From IMG/VR virus record IMGVR_UViG_2541047938_000005: a stretch of 14,709 nt of DNA. One strand, 5' to 3'. Below are positions 1 through 14,709 of the stretch, one piece after another. Under the pieces are notes generated by a model that was not told the origin of the DNA, ran no database searches, and saw only the letters and a list, made by a program, of their open reading frames with translations. The translations under genes and the position numbers were made by a program. Position 1 is the stretch's first letter. Every line of letters begins with the position of its first letter. The DNA comes from a virus. Its lineage: Duplodnaviria; Heunggongvirae; Uroviricota; Caudoviricetes.

Positions 1-600
1 ATGGCGCATATACAACTGGTCAAACAAACCTCTTCTGGTTTACTTCTCCCGGCGACGCCGGAGAGTTGCGATTTTCTGCATCAAATCAAAATAGGTGAGT
101 GGATACACGCAGACTTTAAGCGTGTGCGTAACTACGCATTCCACAAGCGTTTTTTCAAACTCCTGCAACTGGGATTCGATTACTGGACTCCGGTCGGTGG
201 GGCGATCACGCCTCGCGAACGAGAACTGCTGTCTGGTTTCGTTGATTACCTGTGCGAATCAGTTGGTCGGGAACACACGCCAGCCCTGAGTGATGCCGCA
301 GAGCAATACCTTAACACCGTTGCGACTCGTAGAACCCGGGATACGGCGTTGCTAAAGTCGTTTGAGGCTTTCCGCGAGTGGGTAACCATTCAGGCCGGAT
401 TTTACACCGAGCATATTTATCCGGACGGTAGCCGTGGGCGTCGGGCAAAATCCATCGCTTTTGCGAATATGGACGAAGTCGAGTTTCAGCAGGTTTATAA
501 ATCTGTACTGAATGTGCTGTGGAACTGGATTCTGTTCCGTAAATTCTCCTCTCAGGAGGAAGTTGAAAATGTGGCCGCACAACTACTGGAGTTTGCGTAA
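1..600 (+). CDS. nin-region protein, DUF1367-like (function unknown)
   Basis: 199-aa ORF starting at window position 1, so the true start may lie upstream. Stop TAA overlaps the next start (TAATG at 598-602), suggesting translational coupling. Family assignment is from memory of lambdoid genes upstream of Q. Confidence 0.65.
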   Translation: MAHIQLVKQTSSGLLLPATPESCDFLHQIKIGEWIHADFKRVRNYAFHKRFFKLLQLGFDYWTPVGGAITPRERELLSGFVDYLCESVGREHTPALSDAAEQYLNTVATRRTRDTALLKSFEAFREWVTIQAGFYTEHIYPDGSRGRRAKSIAFANMDEVEFQQVYKSVLNVLWNWILFRKFSSQEEVENVAAQLLEFA

Positions 601-890
601 TGGTGAATTTACGTAAAGCGGCTAAAGGCCAGATGTGCCAGATCAGAATCCCTGGCTACTGCAATCACAATCCCGAAACCTCTGTGCTGGCGCATTACAG
701 GCTGGCGGGGACGTGCGGAACAGCGACAAAACCACATGATATGCAGGCGGCGATAGCCTGTAGCTCATGCCACGATCTAATCGACGGGCGGGTAAAAACC
801 AGCGATTACACCAAAGAAGAATTGCGCCTGATGCATGCTGAAGGGGTTTTTCGCACACAAGAAATCTGGAGAAAGAAAGGTCATTTATGA
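600..890 (+). CDS. YbcO-like Cys-rich nin-region protein (DUF1364, putative nuclease)
   Basis: 96 aa; motif MxxLRKAAxGxxCQxRIPGxCNxNPETSVLAH and CxxC pairs match what I recall of DLP12 YbcO. Start overlaps the upstream stop, and its own stop overlaps the Q start (ATGA at 887-890). Confidence 0.75.
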   Translation: MVNLRKAAKGQMCQIRIPGYCNHNPETSVLAHYRLAGTCGTATKPHDMQAAIACSSCHDLIDGRVKTSDYTKEELRLMHAEGVFRTQEIWRKKGHL

Positions 891-1429
891 TTTACCCAAC
901 GAATACAGGAAAAAGCGGAGAACACCTTCGCCTCACCACGCTGGAAAGTGTCTGGATTCAGGGAAAACTACGTATGTGGGGGCGCTGGTCGTATATTGGC
1001 GGTGGCAGGTCAGGGAATATGTTCAATCAGTTGTTGGCATCCAAAAAACTGACGAAAACAGCCATTAATGAAGCCCTGCGCAGAATGAAAAAAGCGGGAA
1101 TAGAGAAAGCTGAGCTGGAAGCGTTTTTGCGAGAGATGATCAACGGCAAGCAAAAGAGCTGGCTGGCGCATTGTACTGATGCAGAGGCGTTATGTATTGA
1201 TCGAGTCATAAGTGAGGTGCTGGCAGAGCATCCAGGATTGATTTGCATTCTCCGGCAACGCTATGAAGGGCGGGGGATGACTAAGCGCAAAATGGCTGAA
1301 TTGCTAAATGATGCACACCCAGAGTGGTGTTTTAGCACATGCGAAAAACGGATTGCTAATTGGTTAGCTGTTGCTGAGTATGCCCTATATATTCCCATGC
1401 GTGAATCATTTGCTGAGAAAATGGCTTGA
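887..1429 (+). CDS. Late-gene antitermination protein Q-like
   Basis: 180 aa, positioned right after nin genes and upstream of terminators and the lysis cassette. C-terminal segment MTKRKMAELLNDAHPEWCFSTCEKRIANWLAVAEYALY looks like a DNA-binding helix region. Family call is positional plus remembered similarity, not a search. Confidence 0.6.
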   Translation: MIYPTNTGKSGEHLRLTTLESVWIQGKLRMWGRWSYIGGGRSGNMFNQLLASKKLTKTAINEALRRMKKAGIEKAELEAFLREMINGKQKSWLAHCTDAEALCIDRVISEVLAEHPGLICILRQRYEGRGMTKRKMAELLNDAHPEWCFSTCEKRIANWLAVAEYALYIPMRESFAEKMA

Positions 1430-1507
1430 TTTCTTACGTATAAACTGCTTCAATTTTGCTATGCTTCGCAAAGCTGTATCGCGAGGCGGATTGCAGACAT
1501 GGACATC

Positions 1508-1538
1508 GTAAAAAAACCGCTTAATGCGGTTTTTTTAC
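1508..1538. terminator. Intrinsic terminator, probably bidirectional
   Basis: A-run (1510-1516), stem AACCGC (1515-1520) / GCGGTT (1526-1531), loop TTAAT, then T-run (1530-1536). About 80 nt downstream of the Q stop. Confidence 0.55.
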
Positions 1539-1856
1539 GTCAGGAAAGCAGGGGAGAATGCTGCTAGTTGGGCAACTGGTCTTTCTGCTCCAAATTATAA
1601 CAGAGACCAGTTATAGTTTCGGTGCTGTGTTTTTTTTACAATATTGTGATAACACATTGCTGGCGGGAGTTTTGATATTTCTTGGCAGGGGCTGATGATG
1701 CGTTATCCTGATGTCGTCAACTCATATAAAATGAGATGAGAGATCATTGCAGGGTGGTTTGTAATTCGCTGTTTAGCGGGACAATATGTTGTCTGATACA
1801 AGACACCCGACGCCTCAGATTACTATAATAAAGACGAAGCATCCTTTGTATTGACC

Positions 1857-1882
1857 AACCGCCTGTTTAGGCGGTTCTTTTT
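1857..1882 (+). terminator. Intrinsic terminator (candidate tR'-like element)
   Basis: Stem AACCGCC (1857-1863) / GGCGGTT (1870-1876), loop TGTTTA, followed by CTTTTT. A TATAAT hexamer lies at 1824-1829 without a convincing -35. Confidence 0.5.
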
Positions 1883-2414
1883 GGGCTGGTTTATTGTATG
1901 CCAAATGATTATTAAAAAGGTTGTGTTAATAACAAAATCCGAAATAATATGCCTGCATATTTTTATCTTGCTTATATTCTGCATATTGTGCATAGCAGGC
2001 TCATCCCTGCAATCAAAACTGTATGATGAGTATTTTTTGTTTTCCTTTTTTCCAGTCATCTGATGATGACCTGCTTCTTTTTAATCCGGATCGACATCAG
2101 TTTTTTAAGATAATTCCTGCGAGTTATATGCATAAATGCCACAAACTCCGCATTTTATGTGGTTGGGAGTTGCCGGGCGCGCAGTGAGTTTGCTAAGAAA
2201 ACTCCTGCATGGTGAATCCCCCTGTGCGGTGGGGTGATACCATTAACCTTTTCTGTCGCCGACAGGTATCACGAACATTTTGTTCACCGGGAGGCACCCG
2301 GCACCATGCACTTCAATAGATTCTCTCCACATTATGGATATTCTTTCAGAATATCCCACGCAGACTTTGTGTAAATGTTAACAAATGTGCGTTTTATTTG
2401 ATCTGATTCGCTGT

Positions 2415-2444
2415 TTGAGCGTCCAAAACAACGGTATATATAAT
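2415..2444 (+). promoter_or_regulatory. Candidate sigma70 promoter for the lipoprotein moron
   Basis: TTGAGC (2415-2420), 18-bp spacer, TATAAT (2439-2444, within TATATAAT), about 30 nt upstream of the GAGGA RBS at 2466-2470. Hexamer reading only. Confidence 0.3.
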
Positions 2445-2473
2445 CCTTTACTATATGACATATGTGAGGAAAA

Positions 2474-2902
2474 ATGGGTTTTCGTAGCGCATCAATTCTT
2501 ACGTTGATTATTAGTGGGATTATTATCGGGTGCACTGATGCTGTATCGACAAATTATCATGACCGTACATCATATTACTCCGATAAAGCAATAGAGACAC
2601 AGTATGTGAGTTCATCTGAACGTACTTCTGATGTTAGTGAGGATATCCGTCTGTATGCCCATCAAATCAAGAGCGCCATCGAAAAACAGTTCGGGGATGC
2701 GAGTAAGTATTCAGGAAAAGAGTGTACACTGAGAATGCATATGGCCCCGAATGGCCTTCTACTGGAGGTTAAAAGAGAAAGTGGAGACCTCGATTTATGT
2801 CGTGAAGCGATGAATGCGATAAAGAATGCTGATATACCTGCCCCCCCTTCGCCGGAAGTATATAAAGTATTTCAAAATGGGGTGCTGGATTTTAAACCCT
2901 GA
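2474..2902 (+). CDS. Lipoprotein with TolA C-terminal (domain III)-like module
   Basis: 142 aa. RBS GAGGA 2466-2470. N-terminal signal peptide with lipobox IIGC (Cys then Thr at +2, so no Asp Lol-avoidance signal). C-terminal ~85 aa track the TolA C-terminus as I recall it: YAHQIKSAIEKQF / CTLRMHMAPNGLLLEV / DLCREA / IPAPPSPEVYKVF / LDFKP. Confidence 0.8.
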   Translation: MGFRSASILTLIISGIIIGCTDAVSTNYHDRTSYYSDKAIETQYVSSSERTSDVSEDIRLYAHQIKSAIEKQFGDASKYSGKECTLRMHMAPNGLLLEVKRESGDLDLCREAMNAIKNADIPAPPSPEVYKVFQNGVLDFKP

Positions 2903-3052
2903 TATTTATTGTTTTGTAATAAACGGTTTCGGCTTAGGTTTGTTCTGACACAGCTACGGCACTGAGCTAAATTTAGCGGATAGTCAGCTCTGAGCCAGTG
3001 GCGGACGTAACAACTACTATTGCTGAGATTTTAATGGATTGAGGAGCAAGAA

Positions 3053-3448
3053 GTGGGATTAAAGAAAATCGTTATGTTGACTTTTTGGGTCGGTTTTGTT
3101 GCGGGATGCACACCTTTACACCCTTCAGATTGCCACAAAACTACTGCTACAGGTAGTTGCAGTTCAGGACGCTGGGATGATCAGGATGAATGGGGGGCGC
3201 AAGCGCGGGGAATCAGAGCTGCAATTAATGCCAAACTTGATGAGCCGCATAACTGGAAAGGGAAAAAATGCAGGTTGCATATGGAATTCTCTCAGGATGG
3301 CACGGCGTTAAAAATATCTACCAGTAACGGTGATAAAGCCTATTGCGAAGCGATAAAGTCCGCAGCTCATAAAGCCAAATTTCCGGCCTTCAACAATCCG
3401 GAAGTCTACAGAGATTTTCAGAAATCTGGCTTTGACATGCGAGGTTAG
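3053..3448 (+). CDS. Second, divergent lipoprotein with TolA domain III-like C-terminus
   Basis: 131 aa, GTG start 3053 with GAGGAG RBS 3041-3046. Lipobox VAGC with Thr at +2. C-terminus keeps the same scaffold in divergent form (KKCRLHMEFSQDGTALKI ... GDKAYCEAIKSAAHKAKFPAFNNPEVYRDFQ). No obvious terminator between the two genes, so probably co-transcribed. Confidence 0.7.
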   Translation: MGLKKIVMLTFWVGFVAGCTPLHPSDCHKTTATGSCSSGRWDDQDEWGAQARGIRAAINAKLDEPHNWKGKKCRLHMEFSQDGTALKISTSNGDKAYCEAIKSAAHKAKFPAFNNPEVYRDFQKSGFDMRG

Positions 3449-3573
3449 CTCTTCAATTACTATATCTCATTCATAGCAAACTGACAGATTTGATGATGTT
3501 CTATATACGAAACCTGTGATGTCAAGTCTGAGCTAATACAAATAAACATAATATCAGAGAAATACATTTTATT

Positions 3574-3596
3574 AGCTCGCTACGGCGAGCTTTTTA
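3574..3596 (+). terminator. Intrinsic terminator closing the lipoprotein moron
   Basis: Stem AGCTCGC (3574-3580) / GCGAGCT (3585-3591), loop TACG, followed by TTTTT. Confidence 0.5.
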
Positions 3597-3699
3597 TATT
3601 GCATCGTCTCCAGCATATATATCAATTAAGGCTCTGATTGATGTGTCTGAAAGCCTACACATAATAACTATGCCATCCGTTCCGTGCGGAGGTGAGGCT

Positions 3700-3915
3700 A
3701 TGAAATCCATGGACAAAATTTCAACAGGCATTGCCTACGGCACCTCCGCAGGCAGTGCTGGCTACTGGTTTTTACAGTTGCTCGATAGAGTAACTCCGTC
3801 ACAGTGGGCTGCAATCGGTGTGCTGGGTAGTCTGGTATTTGGCCTGCTGACGTACCTGACAAACCTTTATTTCAAGATTAAAGAAGATAAGCGCAAGGCT
3901 GCGAGAGGTGAATAA
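3700..3915 (+). CDS. S: Class II holin (pinholin), phage 21 S-type, with dual-start motif
   Basis: 71 aa: [26 protein letters not shown] ... [20 protein letters not shown]. Two in-frame starts (Met1 at 3700, Met4 at 3709) fit the antiholin/holin pair known for S21. The ORF track's upstream GTG (3643) is probably not the start; GGAGGTGAGG RBS at 3689-3697. Confidence 0.9.
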
Positions 3916-4412
3916 TGCCTCCATCATTACGAAAAGTCGTTGCTGCTGCTATTGGTGGCGGAGCAATTGCTATAGCATCAGTGTTAATCACTGGCCCAAG
4001 TGGTAACGATGGTCTGGAAGGTGTCAGCTACATACCATACAAAGATATTGTTGGTGTATGGACTGTATGTCACGGGCATACAGGAAAAGACATCATGCTC
4101 GGTAAAACGTATACCAAAGCAGAATGCAAAACACTCTTGAATAAAGACCTTGCCACTGTCGCCAGACAAATTAACCCGTACATCAAAGTCGATATACCGG
4201 AAACAACGCGCGGCGCTCTTTACTCATTCGTTTACAACGTGGGTGCTGGCAATTTCAGAACATCGACGCTTCTTCGCAAAATAAACCAGGGCGATATCAA
4301 AGGCGCATGTGATCAGCTACGTCGCTGGACATATGCTGGCGGTAAGCAATGGAAAGGTCTCATGACTCGTCGTGAGATTGAGCGTGAAATCTGTTTGTGG
4401 GGTCAGCAATGA
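3915..4412 (+). CDS. R: SAR (signal-arrest-release) endolysin, phage 21 R-type lysozyme
   Basis: 165 aa. Gly/Ala-rich N-terminal SAR helix ([20 protein letters not shown]), then lysozyme core with the E..D..T catalytic spacing ([24 protein letters not shown]). Start overlaps the S stop (TAATG). Confidence 0.9.
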
Positions 4413-4873
4413 ACAGAGTAACCGCGATTATCTCCGCTCTGGTTATCTGCATCATCGTCTGCCTGTCATGGGCTGTTAATCATTACCGTGATAACGCCAT
4501 TACCTACAAAGCCCAGCGCGACAAAAATGCCAGAGAACTGAAGCTGGCGAACGCGGCAATTACTGACATGCAGATGCGTCAGCGTGATGTTGCTGCGCTC
4601 GATGCAAAATACACGAAGGAGTTAGCTGATGCGAAAGCTGAAAATGATGCTCTGCGTGATGATGTTGCCGCTGGTCGTCGTCGGTTGCACATCAAAGCAG
4701 TCTGTCAGTCAGTGCGTGAAGCCACCACCGCCTCCGGCGTGGATAATGCAGCCTCCCCCCGACTGGCAGACACCGCTGAACGGGATTATTTCACCCTCCG
4801 GGAACGACTGGTAATGATGCAGGCCCAACTTGAAGGTGCTCAGCAATACATAACCGAGCAGTGTTTAAAGTAA
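4409..4873 (+). CDS. Rz: Rz inner-membrane spanin (i-spanin), lambda-type
   Basis: 154 aa from ATG 4409, overlapping the R stop (ATGA). N-terminal TM segment then coiled-coil periplasmic domain; close to lambda Rz as I recall it. Confidence 0.9.
4629..4814 (+). CDS. Rz1: Rz1 outer-membrane lipoprotein spanin (o-spanin), embedded in Rz in the +1 frame
   Basis: 61 aa: [20 protein letters not shown] (lipobox) followed by a proline-rich segment [23 protein letters not shown] about 8 nt upstream. Fully nested in Rz as in lambda. Confidence 0.85.
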
Positions 4874-5010
4874 AATCTTAACTACAATATGATTCATTTT
4901 GATGATTGTTTCATAAGGAACAGTGAAGTAAGATCTAAGAGGAGTTAAATTTTATACAGTATAATCATAATATTGCAGCAAGGTGGTTATAATTGAAAGA
5001 ATATTTAGAT

Positions 5011-6468
5011 ATGAATACATCTCATGTAAGAGTTGTTACTCATATGTGTGGGTTCCTGGTTTGGCTCTATAGTCTTTCAATGTTGCCACCAATGGTTGTA
5101 GCATTGTTTTATAAAGAAAAAAGCCTGTTCGTTTTCTTTATAACTTTCGTTATATTTTTTTGCATTGGTGGCGGAGCGTGGTATACAACTAAGAAATCTG
5201 GCATTCAATTACGTACCCGTGATGGGTTTATTATAATTGTAATGTTTTGGATTTTGTTTTCTGTTATTAGTGCATTCCCTTTATGGATTGACTCAGAACT
5301 TAATTTAACGTTCATTGATGCTCTGTTTGAAGGGGTTTCTGGAATAACAACAACAGGAGCAACTGTAATTGATGATGTTAGTTCATTACCTCGGGCATAT
5401 TTGTACTATCGGTCACAGTTAAATTTTATAGGTGGTTTAGGAGTTATTGTTCTGGCGGTTGCAGTATTGCCATTATTGGGTATTGGTGGTGCAAAGCTTT
5501 ATCAGTCAGAAATGCCGGGGCCATTTAAGGATGACAAACTCACTCCCCGCCTGGCCGATACGTCACGGACACTGTGGATAACTTATTCTTTATTAGGTAT
5601 TGCTTGTATTGTCTGTTATAGACTTGCAGGAATGCCTTTGTTTGATGCTATTTGTCACGGGATTTCCACAGTTTCGCTTGGTGGTTTCTCAACTCATAGC
5701 GAGAGTATCGGATATTTTAATAACTATTTGGTTGAGCTGGTGGCTGGTTCTTTTTCCCTGCTATCGGCTTTCAACTTCACTCTTTGGTATATTGTTATTA
5801 GCAGAAAAACGATAAAACCTTTAATCAGAGATATTGAACTTCGTTTCTTTCTGTTAATAGCCTTAGGGGTGATCATTGTTACCTCTTTCCAGGTCTGGCA
5901 TATAGGTATGTATGACTTGCATGGAAGTTTTATTCATTCGTTTTTTCTTGCCAGCTCCATGCTCACTGATAATGGTTTAGCTACGCAGGATTATGCAAAC
6001 TGGCCCACGCACACGATAGTGTTTTTGCTGTTGTCAAGTTTCTTTGGGGGATGTATAGGTTCAACCTGTGGTGGAATTAAGTCACTTCGATTTCTTATAC
6101 TTTTCAAACAAAGCAAACACGAGATAAATCAGCTTTCTCATCCCAGAGCGTTGTTGAGTGTAAATGTAGGAGGGAAGATAGTTACAGATCGTGTAATGAG
6201 GTCTGTATGGAGTTTCTTTTTTCTTTATACTCTCTTCACGGTGTTTTTTATACTGGTGTTAAATGGTATGGGATATGATTTTCTTACATCATTTGCAACA
6301 GTGGCTGCATGTATTAATAATATGGGATTAGGTTTTGGGGCTACTGCATCGTCATTCGGAGTGCTTAATGACATTGCAAAATATTTAATGTGCATAGCTA
6401 TGATTCTTGGTCGCCTTGAAATTTATCCTGTTATTATATTGTTTTCAGGTTTTTTTTGGCGCTCCTAA
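5011..6468 (+). CDS. trkG: Trk-system K+ uptake protein TrkG (TrkH/KtrB family)
   Basis: 485 aa from ATG 5011 (MNTSHVRVV...). Multi-pass membrane protein with repeated pore-loop-like glycine motifs (GITTTG, IGGLG, VSLGGF, TCGGIKS). Visibly AT-rich compared with flanking phage genes. trkG is an established Rac cargo gene. Confidence 0.9.
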   Translation: MNTSHVRVVTHMCGFLVWLYSLSMLPPMVVALFYKEKSLFVFFITFVIFFCIGGGAWYTTKKSGIQLRTRDGFIIIVMFWILFSVISAFPLWIDSELNLTFIDALFEGVSGITTTGATVIDDVSSLPRAYLYYRSQLNFIGGLGVIVLAVAVLPLLGIGGAKLYQSEMPGPFKDDKLTPRLADTSRTLWITYSLLGIACIVCYRLAGMPLFDAICHGISTVSLGGFSTHSESIGYFNNYLVELVAGSFSLLSAFNFTLWYIVISRKTIKPLIRDIELRFFLLIALGVIIVTSFQVWHIGMYDLHGSFIHSFFLASSMLTDNGLATQDYANWPTHTIVFLLLSSFFGGCIGSTCGGIKSLRFLILFKQSKHEINQLSHPRALLSVNVGGKIVTDRVMRSVWSFFFLYTLFTVFFILVLNGMGYDFLTSFATVAACINNMGLGFGATASSFGVLNDIAKYLMCIAMILGRLEIYPVIILFSGFFWRS

Positions 6469-13276: not shown

Positions 13277-14125
13277 ATGACAGCCGTTGGCGAAGGTGAG
13301 TTACTCATCGGCTGGAGTGGTACAAGCGGTGCTCATGCTCCGGCATTTATTCGTTCACGACGGGATACGACCGACGCAAACTGGTCGCCGTGGGCGCAGC
13401 TTTACACCTCGGCTCATCCTCCTGCAGAGTTTTATCCAGTCGGTGCACCAATCCCGTGGCCATCAGATACCGTTCCGTCTGGTTATGCCCTGATGCAGGG
13501 GCAGACTTTTGACAAATCTGCATACCCGAAACTTGCAGTTGCTTATCCGTCAGGCGTGATCCCTGATATGCGTGGCTGGACGATTAAGGGCAAGCCCGCC
13601 AGTGGTCGGGCCGTATTATCTCAGGAACAGGACGGCATTAAATCGCACACCCACAGCGCCAGCGCATCCAGTACGGATTTGGGGACGAAAACCACATCGT
13701 CGTTTGATTACGGAACCAAATCCACGAATAACACCGGGGTGCATACCCATAGTATTAGCGGGACCGCAAATAGTGCTGGTGCGCACCAACACAAGAGTTC
13801 CGGTGCATTTGGTGGCACGAACACGAGCATTTTCCCTAATGGTTATACCGCGATTTCAAATCTAAGCGCGGGGATTATGAGCACAACAAGCGGTAGTGGC
13901 CAGACTCGTAATGCAGGGAAGACATCATCAGATGGTGCTCATACCCACTCGCTGTCCGGCACTGCTGCAAGCGCAGGCGCACATGCACATACTGTCGGTA
14001 TTGGTGCTCATACGCACTCCGTTGCGATTGGTTCACATGGACACACCATCACCGTTAACGCTGCTGGTAACGCGGAAAACACCGTCAAAAACATCGCATT
14101 TAACTATATTGTGAGGCTTGCATAA
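13277..14125 (+). CDS. stf: Side tail fiber protein, C-terminal receptor-binding portion only (collar-like domain plus His-x-His repeats)
   Basis: 282 aa. [50 protein letters not shown] followed by repeated HTHS/HAHT/HGHT motifs and the lambda Stf-like ending [14 protein letters not shown]. The long N-terminal shaft of full-length Stf (about 700-1100 aa) is missing. Confidence 0.8.
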
Positions 14126-14709
14126 TGGCATTCAGAATGAGTGAACAACCACGGACCATAAAAATTTATAATCTGCTGGCCGGAACTAATGAATTTATTG
14201 GTGAAGGTGATGCATATATTCCGCCTCATACAGGTCTGCCAGCAAACAGTACCGATATTGCACCGCCAGATATTCCGGCTGGCTTCGTGGCTGTTTTCAA
14301 CAGTGATGAGTCATCGTGGCATCTCGTTGAAGATCATCGGGGTAAAACGGTTTATGACGTGGCTTCCGGCGACGCGTTATTTATTTCTGAACTCGGTCCG
14401 TTACCGGAAAATGTTACCTGGTTATCGCCGGAAGGGGAGTTTCAGAAGTGGAACGGCACAGCCTGGGTGAAGGATACGGAAGCAGAAAAACTGTTCCGGA
14501 TCCGGGAGGCGGAAGAAACAAAAAACAACCTGATGCAGGTAGCCAGTGAGCATATTGCGCCGCTTCAGGATGCTGCAGATCTGGAAATTGCAACGGAGGA
14601 AGAAATCTCGTTGCTGGAAGCATGGAAAAAGTATCGGGTATTGCTGAACCGTGTTGATACGTCAACTGCACCTGATATTGAGTGGCCTACGAACCCTGTC
14701 AGGGAGTAA
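14125..14709 (+). CDS. tfa: Tail fiber assembly protein (Tfa)
   Basis: 194 aa beginning [34 protein letters not shown], characteristic of lambdoid Tfa/TfaR-type chaperones. Start overlaps the stf stop (TAATG). Stop codon is at the window end. Confidence 0.9.

Follow-up and report, generated by a model that had tools for sequence, protein, structure and literature searches.

What occupies the non-coding kilobase that follows an antiterminator gene in a lambdoid prophage? The question is raised by a 14,709-nt lambdoid prophage of Escherichia coli (the whole stretch is called the window below), in which a Q gene is followed on its 3′ side by a region of 1044 bp (positions 1430-2473). RefSeq holds no annotation across these 1044 bp in E. 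coli genomes that are 100% identical to them. A comparison with 5,426 complete E. coli genomes places the region in at least 446 of them, at coverage of at least 80% and identity of at least 99%, and in many chromosomes the identity is 100%. The original prediction, made from the letters of the sequence, had taken it for an expanded form of the place where the late promoter pR′, the Q-utilisation site qut and the terminator tR′ are expected. According to our comparisons, with a probability of about 0.7, the region is instead a mosaic late-operon leader in a Rac-like prophage, combining a late cassette, a conserved module and an STnc100-like RNA. The pR′/qut/tR′ region itself has not been expanded, since the cassette is compact (~115 bp) and the other 900 bp are separate mosaic modules. 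The region is an ordinary but crowded control region, a mosaic of separate non-coding modules.

All features that had been read from the letters are present where they were placed. The AT-richness is real but modest, with a GC content of 40.5% in 1430-2473 and 46.1% in the whole window, and with minima of 35.7% at 1883-2176 and 31.8% at 2364-2473. The non-coding character also stands: open reading frames (ORFs) of the region match neither Pfam nor PHROGs, RefSeq is blank, and conservation of the longest small ORFs was absent from diverged copies in a six-frame comparison. No tRNA was found by a scan of the window, and an Rfam search of 1380-3700 at a relaxed threshold gave only STnc100 and a weak isrK as credible matches. 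Moreover, perfect 9-mer inverted repeats occur at 8 positions in the region, compared with 0.22 ± 0.55 by chance in 300 dinucleotide shuffles.

The gene upstream of the region had been named Q, and profile comparisons bear out this name. Its product matches Pfam DUF1133 with 356 bits and PHROG 753 ('anti-termination protein Q-like') with an E value of 2e-79. The Q21 family, which is PF06530 (PMC9388147), is reached with 26.1 bits, right at the threshold given the cutoff of 26. When a profile of ten members of the Q family was compared with the PDB, Q21 (6p18) was matched with an E value of 3.6e-5, in an alignment that spans residues 14-39 and 95-178. In the Salmonella prophage Gifsy-1, the Q-like AntQ is encoded directly upstream of the small RNA IsrK, and AntQ expression interferes with termination (PMC4825925). 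A Salmonella locus (L012; related loci are cited by code, L008 for instance being from E. coli and L036 from Pantoea sp. plasmid pAPP145_2) encodes a Q homologue 84% identical to that of the window, directly 5′ of a true isrK. This arrangement matches the antQ-isrK layout (PMC4825925) and hence supports the Q identity. By these matches, the gene encodes a Q-type antiterminator that is probably a distant relative of Q21.

A late promoter and a terminator were expected 3′ of Q, and both were located by comparison of the DNA 3′ of the Q stop codon from 29 loci of many enterobacterial genera (28 distinct sequences). The pattern TTG-N3-N14/15-TGn-[T/C]TnAAT is found at the 3′ end of Q in 22 of the 28 distinct DUF1133 loci and in 8 of 5800 shuffles (0.14%). 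In the window, the -35 hexamer of this candidate promoter contains the Q stop codon TGA (1427-1429). The promoter block recurs 3′ of four unrelated upstream sequences, with TTG and TGcTTCAAT retained each time, and the block 1426-1488 accompanies Q in dozens of loci across genera. In the mosaic comparison, only 1430-1488 of the region accompanies Q into other prophages. The equivalent in L008 is a near-consensus TTGACT-18-TATATT, in which the Q stop codon overlaps the -35 in the same arrangement as in the window, and the Rfam isrK match starts at position +7 from this promoter. The original prediction had been right to expect these elements but could not place the promoter by eye and had not chosen a tR′; comparison now puts the probable late promoter at 1426-1454 and tR′ at 1507-1539. 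In lambda pR′, a -10-like element lies at +1 to +6. The sequence TA(N)GCT is retained 5 nt 3′ of the second hexamer in two Q subfamilies, and by its likeness to lambda pR′ the copy at the predicted start of the window may be a sigma-dependent pause site.

With the promoter at this position, the first terminator would be tR′. Its sequence (GTAAAAAAACCGCTTAATGCGGTTTTTTTAC, 1508-1538) was confirmed, and its inverted repeat has 14-nt arms, CGTAAAAAAACCGC and GCGGTTTTTTTACG, at 1507-1520 and 1526-1539. An intrinsic terminator ends 64-113 nt after the Q stop codon in 27 of the 29 related loci, and at least five different terminator hairpin sequences follow one conserved promoter block. A conserved block with varied hairpins is the pattern that would be expected if the promoter and termination, and not the hairpin sequence, were selected. 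The leader RNA that is predicted to run between them has a fold consisting of a 5′ hairpin (1463-1469/1481-1487) and the terminator, with a z score of -4.39. Over its full length, the Rfam isrK model (RF01394) matches 1463-1536 with 21.6 bits, below its gathering score of 50; the true isrK members in L008 and L012 score 67-81 bits. True isrK begins 33 nt after the Q stop codon in both of these loci, and the window match begins 34 nt after it. The names tR′ and IsrK-like are given here by positional and architectural fit only and not by homology. We file the leader as an analogue rather than a member of the family, being the apparent positional counterpart of Gifsy-1 IsrK. The VT1-Sakai record is annotated alike, with a promoter that overlies the 3′ end of Q and, after it, two terminators.

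The related loci gave further observations around IsrK. In L008 (3575-3776) and L012 (3575-3768), the sequence of true IsrK overlaps with a region matching the a1/b1 targets of P1/P7-type C4 antisense RNA, and a C4 match comes immediately after. By this overlap, the AntQ-IsrK locus resembles an antisense module of the P1 immI type joined to a Q cassette. In addition, a second promoter/leader block of the window type lies 3′ of an ORF6N (AnrP-like) gene in L004 (3480-3600) and L012 (4380-4500). This is the position of isrJ in Gifsy-1; the Rfam isrJ model is unmatched there, and the terminator of the L012 copy is disrupted. An IsrJ identity of the leader block was rejected, as neither the window nor L012 has an Rfam isrJ match.

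A clearly assigned RNA lies further downstream, at 2177-2363, where Rfam STnc100 (RF02076) scores 86.6 bits (gathering score 47, E value 8.5e-18, model positions 1-206). Its minimum free energy (MFE) fold has the multi-stem form of the family, including the closing helix and the CCCCC..GGGG and CCGGG-AGGCA-CCCGG hairpins, with a z score of -3.85. Copies of the family in the loci compared share two nearly invariant cores, GGUGAAUCCCCCnnnGCGGnGGGG and UCACCGGGAGGCACCCGGCACCA. Between the cores is an unrelated segment of 30-70 nt; wherever a variant takes up the family fold, this segment forms one hairpin or two. The closing helix covaries, being GCAUGGUG/CACCAUGC in the window, GUGGUG/CACCAC in L020 and GCGGUG/CACCGC in L036. 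PasD is related to STnc100, and both are located between Q and holin (Storz-laboratory preprint, bioRxiv 10.64898/2026.05.13.724894); STnc100-type copies just 3′ of stx genes have been described (PMC12370729), with which the VT1-Sakai record agrees. In enteropathogenic E. coli (EPEC), PasD is an Hfq-associated small RNA (PMC8550237).

The start of this RNA can be predicted from the family. A TAnnnn hexamer lies 4-7 nt 5′ of GCAUGGUGAAUCC in all ten family variants examined, and a TTG hexamer lies 17-18 nt upstream of it in most of the ten, both read by eye. The 5′ end of PasD2 in EPEC E2348/69 is 741157 (PMC8550237, Table S6), which falls on the G of GCAUGG. The aligned position in the window is 2207, where the STnc100-like transcript is predicted to start.

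The 3′ part of the element departs from the family. Typical members have a GCCCCUC..GAGGGGC terminator with a U-run ~25 nt after the second core, whereas the window and phage mEp460 have a hairpin without U-run at this place, and the scan gave no terminator-like site between 2070 and 3574. The 3′ intrinsic terminator by which STnc100 is also recognised is thus absent, and the window element is a family member by its 5′ two-thirds only. Because no terminator follows the STnc100 copy, a transcript from 2207 would probably continue into the TolA-like genes downstream. Starting at 2283, the window and mEp460 share a 100% identical sequence, and the recombination joint lies inside the conserved second core. 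The position of this joint suggests that STnc100 cores act as homologous crossover points between phages.

Two related loci have other arrangements of structured RNAs. L036 has, at ~4070-4900, three or more STnc100-like units in tandem, interspersed with further partial copies; each unit has both invariant cores, and the middle segments differ. In the Q-to-lysis interval of a Superficieibacter prophage (L013, 4055-4455), a cspA thermoregulator (RF01766, 155.6 bits) is a further structured RNA leader.

Between the late cassette and the STnc100-like RNA, the 9-bp inverted repeat had been described exactly. Its arms persist as ACTGGTC/GACCAGT in loci of the L089/L118 type, where the loop is an unrelated sequence of 42 nt and the 3′ flank is also unrelated. 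The estimated chance of finding that 7-mer within a 60-nt span is ~0.4%. A variable arm spacing of this kind would fit an RNA stem better than a binding site for a dimer. In L118 (3774-4516), which belongs to a sister lineage, a gene for an AraC-family regulator lies 3′ of the conserved inverted repeat and replaces the module of the window.

This module, 1541-1882, is ~60% identical to DNA 3′ of tRNA-Thr/tRNA-Gly in L007-type prophages. L005 shares only the core from ~1660, located 3′ of iraM, and in metagenome variants the last 70 nt are swapped. The core 1660-1882 recurs in at least four genomic contexts, with the invariant islands GTTTAGCGGGA and CACCCGACGCCTC within an overall identity of ~60%. 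On the 3′ side of the islands, each variant has a hexamer resembling a -10, then a motif of the (C/U)AUCCUUU type and a terminator, and this combination of hexamer, U/C-rich motif and terminator recurs in four sequence variants. The terminator in the window (AACCGCCTGTTTAGGCGGTTCTTTTT, 1857-1882) agrees with the original prediction and was also found by the terminator scan. A promoter scan gave AAGACA-18-TATAAT at 1800-1829, with a -35 that is unconserved among the variants. It is a reasonable hypothesis, resting on the recurring pattern, that 1836-1882 gives a small RNA of ~47 nt; about 150 nt containing the two islands precede it.

Other searches in this part of the region were negative. Six-frame comparison with diverged copies gave no conserved ORF in 1541-1882. 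RNAalifold on 1660-1882 returned a covariation term of +0.69, with double changes in 3 of 65 pairs and many pairs broken by the window sequence, and the z score of the fold (-1.7) is not significant; a structured-RNA reading of 1660-1882 is unsupported by both. Pattern scans of viral and metagenome data for diverse copies of the module gave just two deep clades plus hybrids. Duplex predictions for the leader RNA and the putative 47-nt RNA against targets in the window were no better than those for shuffled queries. An identity of the 1801-1882 unit with PasA/PasC was rejected because the published sequence fragments differ, and a sigma-54 reading of TGGCAGGG at ~1683 was rejected because its spacing, judged by eye, is wrong. 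The spacer that follows the module has a copy in L005 that is 84% identical, in which the small ORF has been lost (ATG gone, a frame-shifting indel and a 59-bp indel). A bolder view is that 1660-1882 is an undescribed regulatory RNA locus of prophages, which makes a terminator-ended small RNA of ~47 nt with a UCCUUU-type seed and moves as a unit, and that STnc100 cores serve both as accessory-gene leader and as recombination joints. We regard this combination as rather doubtful.

Several observations weigh against a mosaic late-operon leader. With a score far below the Rfam gathering threshold, the isrK match does not establish that the leader RNA is homologous. The proposed -10, TTCAAT, is without the usual A at its second position and depends on the TGn extension; TATGCT, 5 nt further on, would serve better as a -10, although no -35 is suitably spaced from it. 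A Q-binding element was sought in the late cassette and none was assignable. The promoter block has a second copy 3′ of ORF6N/AnrP-like genes in L004 and L012, and the block therefore need not always be a site of Q loading. The AlphaFold model of Q, built from a 10-sequence alignment, had a pLDDT (predicted local distance difference test) of 49, too poor for a fold search. Finally, the STnc100 copy lies at a recombination joint (2283) and is without terminator, and it could be a non-functional remnant.

The last point leads to the alternative that survives best, although we consider it unlikely. This alternative takes 1541-2169, the inverted repeat and the STnc100 copy without terminator for functionless relics of recombination in a cryptic prophage, and attributes their conservation to recent descent only. 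Indeed, identity of at least 99% over 1044 bp in 446 genomes says little on selection, the RNAalifold result for 1660-1882 is without real covariation, the terminator of the STnc100 copy is gone, and trkG lies 3′ of the lysis genes, an order also seen in Rac, which is a defective prophage. However, mere relics would not readily account for a 1660-1882 core that is found in at least four genomic contexts with invariant islands amid ~60% identity, or for arms of the inverted repeat that outlast the replacement of their loop and 3′ flank. Moreover, neither invariant core of the STnc100 copy has been lost, its closing helix is retained, and a promoter lies at the family offset.

A second alternative concerns the palindrome CTGTCGCCGACAG at 2253-2265, which the original prediction had offered as a possible operator. 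With its GATACC/GGTATC arms it would be a DNA site where a dimeric regulator controls the TolA-like promoter 150-190 bp downstream. The palindrome is indeed perfect (6+1+6), the arms are present and in fact 8 nt long (GTGATACC at 2234-2241 and GGTATCAC at 2265-2272), adding further symmetry, and a good promoter-like site follows. However, the site is enclosed by DNA that strongly matches a family of transcribed RNAs, and falls in the hairpin-forming segment of this family, whose sequence varies. In the MFE fold, GUGAUACC pairs with GGUAUCAC (2234-2241/2265-2272) and CUGU with ACAG, followed by a small GAACA/UGUUC hairpin, and the other family variants that were folded each have their own distinct hairpin or hairpins at this position. 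The outer arms are asymmetric, the left one being 11 nt from the palindrome and the right one abutting it, and such spacing is easier to reconcile with an internal loop in an RNA stem than with binding of a protein. In addition, the promoter and the TolA-like genes are identical in mEp460, yet another sequence stands there in place of the palindrome, which thus does not travel with the promoter that it was proposed to control. Among natural variants of the hairpin, one retains pairing through a U-G wobble and another breaks one pair. The palindrome with its arms is better explained as the variable hairpin of the STnc100/PasD-family RNA, and on these comparisons an operator is highly improbable.

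The least probable alternative is that the true late promoter and terminator are those of the second unit (AAGACA-18-TATAAT at 1800-1829, terminator at 1857-1882), the first terminator just ending the Q operon: TATAAT at 1824-1829 is the best -10 hexamer of the region and has a terminator within 50 nt, and a bidirectional-looking terminator straight 3′ of a gene could simply close an early operon, but this unit is not linked to Q, lying ~800 bp further on behind tRNA genes in L007-type prophages and behind iraM in L005, far from a different antiterminator gene, its -35 is unconserved, and it is the block 1426-1488 that does travel with Q in dozens of loci across genera.

Under the preferred reading, a late-operon leader assembled from several modules, the region would work as follows. 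In the lysogen, a sigma-70 late promoter would start transcription at ~1461-1463, and polymerase would stop at tR′ and release an RNA of ~75 nt with a 5′ hairpin, the counterpart of Gifsy-1 IsrK, of StxS of Stx phages and of lambda 6S RNA (the last being ~194 nt long). Upon induction, Q would load onto RNA polymerase at the late promoter, and the Q-loaded polymerase would pass all three terminators (1507-1539, 1857-1882 and 3574-3597) to reach the lysis and structural genes. The module 1541-1882 ends in the second terminator and may hold the gene of the ~47-nt small RNA. The STnc100-like copy (2170-2363) would be transcribed from its own promoter, and its RNA would probably extend into the two genes for TolA-like lipoproteins and form a long leader on their 5′ side. 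The STnc100-like RNA and these genes, with their own promoters and a stop at the third terminator, would be the usual accessory-gene insert in a late operon. The sequence features, the family matches and the conserved positions of promoter and terminator are direct observations; the starts and ends of transcripts, the action of Q at the late promoter and the read-through of the STnc100-like RNA are what we infer from them.

A moron with its own promoter had been proposed to follow the region. A promoter-like site is indeed present (TTGAGC-18-TATAAT), and the structure of promoter, gene and terminator was found, with the third terminator closing it just before holin. The promoter is part of the module 2283-2473 that is 100% identical in mEp460. 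The two TolA-like proteins are paralogous and belong to PHROG 5772, a family of unknown function. Periplasmic decoys with TolA domains might plausibly block colicins or filamentous phages, which is speculation. The gene trkG lies directly 3′ of Rz, an order that the Rac prophage of E. coli K-12 also has. The prophage of the window has retained its Q gene and lysis cassette, which are not known from K-12 Rac. Near the end of the window, 14468-14666 (+) is a full-length match to Rfam IS009 (RF02111, 220.9 bits) inside the ORF 14125-14709. The features are collected in Table 1.

Table 1. Features in and around the region 3′ of Q, in coordinates of the window
Feature	Position	Strand	Description
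DUF1367 gene	1-600		Upstream flank
YbcO gene	600-890		Upstream flank
Q-like antiterminator gene, DUF1133/AntQ type, probably distant Q21 family	887-1429	+	Pfam, PHROG and PDB profile matches
Candidate late promoter	1426-1454	+	-35 TTGATT 1426-1431; 17-nt spacer; TGc 1446-1448; -10 TTCAAT 1449-1454
-10-like TATGCT, possible sigma-dependent pause element	1460-1465	+	At the predicted start
Predicted terminated leader RNA, ~75 nt	~1461-1463 (start) to ~1536 (end)	+	By alignment with related loci
tR′ intrinsic terminator (named by position)	1507-1539	+	Stem AAACCGC/GCGGTTT; U-run 1530-1536; flanking A7 run
Conserved non-coding module	1541-1882	+	Core 1660-1882; ends in the second terminator
9-bp inverted repeat AACTGGTCT / AGACCAGTT	1574-1582 and 1604-1612	.	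Arms perfectly complementary
Hypothetical small transcription unit	1824-1882	+	-10-like TATAAT 1824-1829; RNA ~1836-1882; CAUCCUUUG motif; terminator
Second intrinsic terminator	1857-1882	+	AACCGCCT-GTTT-AGGCGGTT and CTTTTT; 8-bp stem; stem conserved, loop varies
AT-rich spacer	1883-2169	.	35.7% GC; no conserved ORF, Pfam or PHROG match
Predicted promoter of STnc100-like RNA	2170-2199	+	TTGCCG 2170-2175; 18 nt; TAAGAA 2194-2199
STnc100/PasD-family RNA element	2207-2363	+	Rfam match 2177-2363
Variable hairpin of STnc100-like RNA (palindrome with GATACC/GGTATC arms)	2234-2272	+	Between the invariant cores
Hairpin GGATATTCT/AGAATATCC without U-tract	2336-2356	+	At the family terminator position, then CACGCAG
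Proximal sigma-70-like promoter of the TolA-like pair	2415-2444	+	TTGAGC-18-TATAAT; 10/12 consensus matches
Pair of genes for proteins with a TolA C-terminal domain and a lipobox-like N-terminus	2474-2902, 3053-3448	+	Pfam PF06519; PHROG 5772; RefSeq TolA-like
Third intrinsic terminator	3574-3597	+	AGCTCGC-TACG-GCGAGCT then TTTTAT; ~50 nt before the holin gene (3643)
Holin gene	3643-3915		Downstream flank
Lysozyme gene	3915-4412		Downstream flank
Rz gene	4397-4873		Downstream flank
trkG gene	4993-6468		Downstream flank, as in the Rac prophage

The analysis turns an unannotated 1-kb gap into a testable map with a proposed late promoter, three terminators for Q to override and a small RNA of a known family. 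The region is a new instance of a late cassette of the AntQ/IsrK type together with an STnc100/PasD-family RNA, which will not surprise phage specialists. For the DUF1133/AntQ branch of Q, whose late promoter has not been studied biochemically before, this promoter is now defined by comparison, and the definition can serve as a template when a factor resembling Q21 is studied in vitro. In addition, an RNA of the STnc100/PasD type can be placed so that it would lead into TolA-like accessory genes, which bears on the exchange of RNAs and neighbouring genes among prophages.

Among known systems, Q21 (PDB 6P18; bioRxiv 10.1101/651190; PMC9388147) is like the Q of the window in the profile match and in the expected order of promoter, Q-binding element, sigma-dependent pause and terminator. 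However, the similarity is weak, with PF06530 exactly at threshold, and a tandem 8-bp direct repeat, the type of site that Q21 binds, was not assignable in the window cassette.

In its architecture, the cassette resembles IsrK/PisrK of Gifsy-1 (RF01394; PMC4825925). Both have a DUF1133 Q-like protein and, by prediction for the window, a promoter overlapping the Q stop codon, a start ~33-34 nt after it, a 5′ hairpin and an intrinsic terminator at ~75 nt, and in the window, too, read-through would be toward the lysis genes. In contrast to IsrK, the leader sequence of the window is not recognisably homologous, its -10 is TGcTTCAAT instead of TATATT, and the window is without the downstream C4-like RNA, orf45 or an anti-repressor gene as RNA target.

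StxS, lambda 6S RNA and IsrK have been described as by-products of antitermination control (PMC7547250). Like lambda 6S RNA and StxS, the window leader would be a short RNA from a late promoter directly 3′ of Q that is ended by tR′, and Q antitermination upon induction is expected here too. The Q of the window comes from another family branch than those of StxS and lambda, and its leader is ~75 nt long, compared with 258 nt for the StxS precursor (PMC7547250).

With STnc100, PasD1-PasD2 and EcOnc13 (PMC8550237; bioRxiv 10.64898/2026.05.13.724894; PMC12370729), the downstream element shares the cores, the closing helix, two hairpins and the promoter offset, as well as a location between Q and holin, just 5′ of an accessory gene. 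It differs from STnc100/PasD in its last third, which belongs to the TolA-like gene module common to mEp460, and in the sequence of its middle hairpin, the palindrome, which is particular to the lineage of the window.

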